Assembly: GCF_003334385.1 (NCBI RefSeq)
Contig: NZ_QOWN01000145.1
Reading direction: 5' to 3' (one strand)
Source: Escherichia coli
GTDB lineage: Bacteria; Pseudomonadota; Gammaproteobacteria; Enterobacterales; Enterobacteriaceae
DNA: 773 nucleotides
Shown piece after piece: positions 1 to 773 of this stretch; positions within the stretch are counted from its first letter, which is position 1; every line of letters begins with the position of its first letter. Both the position numbers and the translations under genes were made by a program. The notes under the pieces were generated by a model, which worked only from the letters and a program-made list of their open reading frames with translations, did not search any database and was not told the origin of the DNA.

Positions 1-773
1 AACATGGCCTGGTGTCTGTGGGATATGCTGACCCATCCACGCTACGGCATGGGGAAACGTCTTGGTGCGGCGGATGTGGACAAATGGGCGCTGTATGTCA
101 TCGGCCAGTACTGCGACCAGTCAGTACCGGACGGCTTTGGCGGCACGGAGCCGCGCATCACCTGTAATGCGTACCTGACCACACAACGTAAGGCGTGGGA
201 TGTGCTCAGTGATTTCTGCTCGGCGATGCGCTGTATGCCGGTATGGAACGGGCAGACGCTGACGTTCGTGCAGGACCGACCGTCGGATAAGGCGTGGACC
301 TATAACCGCAGTAATGTGGTGATGCCGGATGATGGCGCGCCGTTCCGCTACAGCTTCAGCGCCCTGAAAGACCGCCATAATGCCGTTGAGGTGAACTGGA
401 TTGACCCGAACAACGGCTGGGAGACGGCGACAGAGCTTGTTGAAGATACGCAGGCCATTGCCCGTTACGGTCGTAATGTTACGAAGATGGATGCCTTTGG
501 CTGTACCAGCCGGGGGCAGGCACACCGCGCCGGGCTGTGGCTGATTAAAACGGAGCTGCTGGAGACGCAGACCGTGGATTTCAGCGTCGGCGCAGAAGGG
601 CTTCGCCATGTACCGGGCGATGTTATTGAAATCTGCGATGATGACTATGCCGGTATCAGCACCGGTGGTCGTGTGCTGGCGGTGAACAGCCAGACCCGGA
701 CGCTGACGCTCGACCGTGAAATCACGCTGCCATCCTCCGGTACCACGCTGATAAGCCTGGTTGACGGAAGTGG
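1..773 (+). CDS. J: Internal fragment (5' and 3' partial) of phage tail tip / host-specificity protein J (lambda gpJ-like central tail fibre protein); central conserved region, not the C-terminal receptor-binding region
   Basis: Seen in sequence: frame +1 from nt 1 is open for 257 consecutive codons to the window edge, with the last 2 nt being a partial codon. Codon usage is enterobacterial/lambda-like (ctg, ccg, gcg, cgc and cgt preferred). From recall: the translation matches the gpJ segment that starts ...NMAWCLWDMLTHPRYGMGKRLGAADVDKWALYVIGQYCDQSVPDGFGGTEPRITCNAYL... and continues ...HVPGDVIEICDDDYAGISTGGRVLAVNSQTRTLTLDREITLPSS.... The ATG at nt 2-4 is an internal Met codon, not the start; gpJ begins several hundred codons upstream. 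This CDS is absent from the ORF track, presumably because the track requires a start and stop within the window. Confidence 0.93.

Follow-up and report, generated by a model that had tools for sequence, protein, structure and literature searches.

Among the closest described counterparts of the DNA analysed here is the tail-tip gene J of phage lambda (AAA96553.1; structures 8IYK, 8XCG and 9E7M). In the lambda tail, the tube is closed by three copies of gpJ together with gpL, gpI and a ring of gpM, and when LamB is bound by the C-terminal domain of gpJ the hub domains rotate as rigid bodies and the channel opens (PMC11101478). Residues 72-215 of gpJ form the FNIII-A insertion, which is followed by the four-hub-domain scaffold (HDII, HDIII, HDIV), and residues 483-569 form a beta-sandwich inserted in HDIV (PMC10721106). 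The hub domains HDII, HDIII and HDIV are described in two structural studies (PMC10721106; PMC11101478). More distant hubs of the TipJ family for which structures have been solved belong to other phages and tailocins: residues of about 278-531 align with 25vf_A (F2-pyocin tail fibre protein), 9l9p_S and 23gd_D (J-like gp24) at E = 1e-36 to 1e-66, with much lower similarity.

The window, by which we mean the whole 773-nucleotide stretch of Escherichia coli DNA that was analysed, is translated without interruption. A single open frame (frame 1, plus strand, 257 codons, no stops) spans all 773 bases and runs off both ends, so that the ORF list contains no complete ORF in this frame. The window opens with the first base of J codon 271 and closes two bases into codon 528, which places it at J nt 811-1583. 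A phmmer comparison with the solved gpJ chains 8iyk_J and 9e7m_Ja aligned residues 271-527 with E of about 1e-178 and 255 of 257 residues identical. The NCBIfam profile NF049904 (lambda_TipJ) was matched collinearly at positions 271-527 of 1163 (E = 3.5e-180); the score of 601 bits comes from a 257-residue fragment, whereas the curated cut-off of 1950 bits refers to the full-length protein of about 1160 residues. The sequence had been described as relatively GC-rich by eye in the initial annotation, and this is borne out by a G+C content of 0.55-0.615 in 200-base windows. The features that we recognise are as follows.

1-773, plus strand: internal fragment of gene J, lambda-type tail tip, comprising codons 271-527 plus two bases of codon 528; start and stop codons are both absent.
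178-684, plus strand: Pfam domain Phage-tail_3 (PF13550), hmmscan E = 3e-44, model positions 1-162 of 164.
637-771, plus strand: start of the HDIV beta-sandwich insertion (its first 45 residues, J 483-527), containing A519T; placed from PMC10721106 and codon numbering.
39, 81, 126, 186, 210, 369, 552, 555 and 564, plus strand: nine synonymous third-position transitions relative to lambda, from the per-site comparison.
292, plus strand: T368A (ACG to GCG; A in lambda, G in the window), within the Phage-tail_3 domain, from the per-site comparison.
745, plus strand: A519T (GCG to ACG; G in lambda, A in the window), within the HDIV insertion, from the per-site comparison.
121-609, minus strand: open reading frame of 162 amino acids, exactly antisense to the J frame.

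The Phage-tail_3 domain covers window residues 60-228, equivalent to J residues 330-498, and represents the core of the gpJ baseplate-hub scaffold. We consider it almost certain that the window is an ordinary internal fragment of gene J, which encodes the tail tip, and that it comes from a natural lambdoid phage or prophage of E. coli. It is a kind of sequence that is already known, a conserved hub-region fragment of gene J of an E. coli-type lambdoid prophage. Expression and function of this particular copy of J are putative. Some chromosomal copies of J are pseudogenes, for example the copy in strain 2013C-4187.

Alignment to the lambda reference genome confirmed that the sequence lies very close to lambda, as had been suspected from the letters alone. 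Nucleotides 16315-17087 of lambda J02459.1, inside gene J (15505-18903), align to the window without gaps (megablast E = 0, 1367 bits), a match that is far above chance, with 762 of 773 nucleotides (98.58%) and 255 of 257 residues (99.2%) identical over codons 271-527. All 11 differences are transitions, nine of them synonymous and two non-synonymous (T368A and A519T). The latter are the two residues that had been flagged, with reservations, as possible departures from lambda; they are real and are the sole amino acid differences, the window reading SDKAWTY and GTTLISL where lambda has SDKTWTY and GTALISL. The Nei-Gojobori estimates for the pair (dS 0.052, dN 0.0034, dN/dS 0.066) accompany a set of differences that is ordinary standing polymorphism under purifying selection. 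The window and lambda gene J are therefore alike in gene, reading frame, collinearity and Pfam domain but unlike at 11 substitutions, so that the two are separate alleles belonging to distinct phage lineages. A cluster of three differences lies within 13 bases (window 552-564), where lambda reads ACA GAA CTG CTG GAA and the window ACG GAG CTG CTG GAG. Intermediate combinations occur among the alleles of the panel described below, which favours a small patch of recombination or gene conversion over three separate mutations.

To place these differences, we compared the window and lambda with a panel of 10 other alleles, drawn from five E. coli prophages and the phages PhiR29_1, 2B8, PhiR49_1, 434 and Lambda_2E9. 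At four of the 11 sites (210, 292, 552 and 745), which include both amino acid sites, the lambda base is private and the window base is present in all 10 other alleles. Base 292 is G throughout the panel, giving an alanine or a valine codon, and threonine at residue 368 is confined to lambda; likewise, residue 519 is threonine in 10 of 10 panel alleles and alanine in lambda only. The A at base 126 is the rare state of the window, being found in a single member of the panel, phage 2B8, and in the prophage of strain SCU-104 described below, while the window state at each of the other eight synonymous sites is carried by at least three panel alleles. The patchy spread of shared variants across the panel would be as expected for recombining lambdoid genes.

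Segments resembling this part of J are abundant in the species, occurring in 4534 of 5426 complete E. coli genomes with a median of three copies and up to 14. Across these 5426 genomes, 34 records reach at least 99% identity to the window, and a single genome, that of the commensal strain SCU-104 from a healthy student's rectal swab, matches it at 100%. Nine further records among those listed, which represent eight strains, reach 99.9% identity; they were obtained from turkey, meat, cattle, pigs and humans. Exact searches of IMG/VR viral contigs with a diagnostic 97-mer and 121-mer gave no matches. The exact copy in SCU-104 (gpJ WP_174147651.1, NZ_CP053284.1 1285630-1289043) shows no difference over the 773 bases and lies within a chromosomal prophage of a natural isolate. 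This prophage extends from argU (tRNA-Arg) and intD to a tail fibre assembly gene and adjoins ompT-envY-nfrA. The tRNA-Arg site is that occupied by the defective prophage DLP12 in K-12. Around the exact-match J the gene order is M-L-K-I-J-lom-stf-tfa, a neighbourhood that is also present in strain 789. The SCU-104 prophage (about 1251707-1293330 of NZ_CP053284.1) is apparently full-length, with lambda-like head and tail genes, and carries iss and a porin gene annotated as ompC. In the annotation, its gene M homologue (locus 16785-17114) is a pseudogene broken by an internal stop, and the prophage may on this account be tail-defective.

The initial annotation had left open three sources, namely lambda itself, a lambda-derived vector or contaminant, and a near-identical prophage, and only the last of these stands, given nine synonymous differences from lambda and the 100% match in SCU-104. 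The first two fail because of the many synonymous differences, the pattern that the initial annotation had itself set against them. We have nevertheless considered whether the window could be canonical lambda, a lambda cloning vector or control-DNA contamination in which the 11 differences are sequencing or assembly errors, an explanation that we regard as exceedingly improbable. The overall similarity, with 98.6% nucleotide identity and 255 of 257 residues in common, is what makes it worth raising, and public records do contain lambda contamination. Three "plasmids" of about 48.4-48.5 kb in the plasmids collection (NZ_CP082339.1, NZ_CP104294.1 and NZ_CP068597.1, labelled Salmonella enterica, Stenotrophomonas maltophilia and Paenibacillus sonchi) are lambda-sized and 98.6% identical to the window, and the mislabelled 'Campylobacter phage CJLB-4' (MW057783.1, phages collection) is 100% identical to lambda in this segment. 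All four have the appearance of contaminating lambda control DNA that was entered as native replicons, which for the plasmids is the best explanation, but they stand at the same distance from the window as canonical lambda does. When the lambda segment was compared with the phage collection, 23 lambda-lineage records, including lambda, lambda imm21, imm434, h434 imm21, DE3, DN1, O276, HK629, HK630 and the mislabelled CJLB-4, proved mutually 100% identical, the next best record reaching 98.3%; the window is 98.6% identical to each of the 23. Thus, the window differs at 11 of 773 positions from a reference that all 23 records reproduce without a single difference. In E. coli, the exact lambda allele is likewise restricted, all 25 genomes listed being K-12 or BL21(DE3)-type strains or their derivatives, whatever source is recorded for them (for example J53, NCM3722, CV601, BL21(DE3) and C41/C43(DE3)). 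The lambda lineage is a tight clone at this segment of gene J, and the window falls outside it. Nor do the differences behave as errors in lambda DNA: a ratio of 9:2 synonymous to non-synonymous changes is improbable under random change, the probability of at least nine synonymous changes in 11 being 7e-5 if substitutions fall at random and 1.3e-3 if transitions do. All 11 variant bases recur exactly in the independent finished genome of SCU-104. Ten of them are each found in at least three natural alleles, the remaining one (base 126) being that found in the panel in phage 2B8 only, and a second metagenome yields the same sequence with one base different. Sequencing error is accordingly rejected by the allele panel and by the excess of synonymous changes.

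A natural prophage origin could still take the form of a wild member of the species Lambdavirus lambda, with a whole genome collinear with lambda, rather than a mosaic lambdoid phage. The prophage carrying the exact copy goes some way towards this, since in SCU-104 its left 18.5 kb, corresponding to lambda nt 1 to nt 18474 within J (J nt about 2970), have 97.2% identity to lambda, and exo-bet-gam and some of the replication region also match, at 95-97%. However, the J C-terminal, immunity, int, Q and holin/lysozyme regions of SCU-104 gave no nucleotide match to lambda, and a forced alignment of the C-terminal part of J reached only 45-58% identity; the prophage has another integrase and attachment site, another repressor, QuuD as its Q, the holin essD and the lysozyme rrrD. 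Moreover, an allele only one base away from the window belongs to a phage with an HK97-type head. This allele, in strain 789, encodes an identical protein fragment, but the surrounding prophage (NZ_CP010315.1 2208500-2249272) combines a P27-family small terminase with a protease and capsid of the HK97 family, and its tape measure protein is different. Nucleotide similarity to lambda is first seen at lambda nt 13409, where gene M ends, and continues from gene L on, which marks this point as a clear boundary between modules. tRNA-Ile and tRNA-Thr genes are located downstream of Q in the same prophage. The window alone cannot discriminate between these backgrounds, and with the mosaic structure of the SCU-104 prophage and the HK97-headed prophage of strain 789 in mind we judge a wild Lambdavirus lambda to be very unlikely, in favour of a mosaic lambdoid prophage.

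The comparison of complete J genes places the window within a segment that is shared across such mosaics. In addition to gpJ of strain 789 (WP_044502255.1; one nucleotide and no protein differences from the window), gpJ of ATCC 8739 (WP_000515744.1) differs by four nucleotides and one residue. Both of these proteins have 1159 residues, compared with 1137 in SCU-104 and 1132 in lambda, and the C-terminal thirds are divergent. Sliding identity along J shows that the window lies in the best-conserved stretch, where the three genes compared are 98-100% identical, and that divergence sets in from about nt 2400-3000. The block represented by the window is the most conserved part of J and a widely exchanged module, common at 98% or more to prophages with other J C-terminal domains and other genes for immunity, integration and lysis and, in the one case of strain 789, with other head genes too.

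The 257-residue translation is already on record from two 773-bp scaffolds in independent ENA metagenome assemblies. The whole of ZHUJ18-1_SAMN08993529_METAG-scaffold_32605 (ERZ28661838) is identical to the window, and ZEEV15-1_SAMEA3664851_METAG-scaffold_47414 (ERZ28661826) has the same 773-bp extent and departs from the window by a single synonymous change, at base 480. To judge by their dataset names, both may come from human gut studies. The position that immediately precedes the window (J nt 810) carries C in SCU-104 and lambda and T in strain 789 and ATCC 8739, and the one that immediately follows it (J nt 1584) carries C in most alleles and T in phage 434, so the scaffold stretches exactly between two polymorphic third-codon sites. 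It is thus probably an assembly-graph (de Bruijn) unitig bounded by branches between co-resident J alleles, which would explain why the scaffold ends are identical in two samples.

Searches for other features in the window gave little. No Rfam match was obtained on either strand at E <= 1, and the window contains no promoter-like sites, no inverted repeats and no Chi site (GCTGGTGG); its repeats are limited to two short imperfect two-copy direct repeats. A terminator-like hairpin at 603-620 is not credible, one such hairpin being seen where 0.5 are expected by chance, within the coding frame. The antisense ORF at 121-609 was rejected as a gene, being interrupted by a stop in three of 12 alleles and encoding a protein that is not conserved: its amino acid differences keep pace with the base differences (for example six against lambda, for eight bases), whereas the sense frame changes by 0-2 residues. 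The ORF results from the GC richness of the sense frame.

With regard to function, the window encodes residues 271-527 of a J protein of roughly 1130-1160 residues, a portion that falls in the baseplate-hub scaffold (HDII, HDIII and HDIV, with the start of the inserted beta-sandwich). By analogy with lambda, three such J proteins together with gpL, gpI and the gpM ring would make up the closed conical end of the tail tube. Opening of the cone, as taken from the lambda structures, would involve rigid-body rotation of the hub once the distant C-terminal domain has bound its receptor. The host-range determinants lie in this J C-terminal domain, beyond the window. T368A and A519T are conservative substitutions, far from the receptor-binding domain. 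Since both lambda residues are private in our panel, T368 and A519 might conceivably be derived changes of K-12 or laboratory lambda that affect tail-tip stability or the triggering of DNA ejection, although we consider this unlikely; if it were true, the window would represent the wild-type form of the hub.

The J block is shared across different prophages, and the fragment therefore identifies neither the source phage nor its receptor. Near-identity to lambda over this conserved tail-tip block cannot name the phage: the same block occurs in prophages with a head of either the lambda or the HK97 type and with J C-terminal (receptor-binding) regions that differ. The value of the finding is one of housekeeping only, in that the sequence should be labelled as gene J (hub region) of an E. 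coli-type lambdoid prophage instead of being treated as lambda or as contaminating vector DNA.
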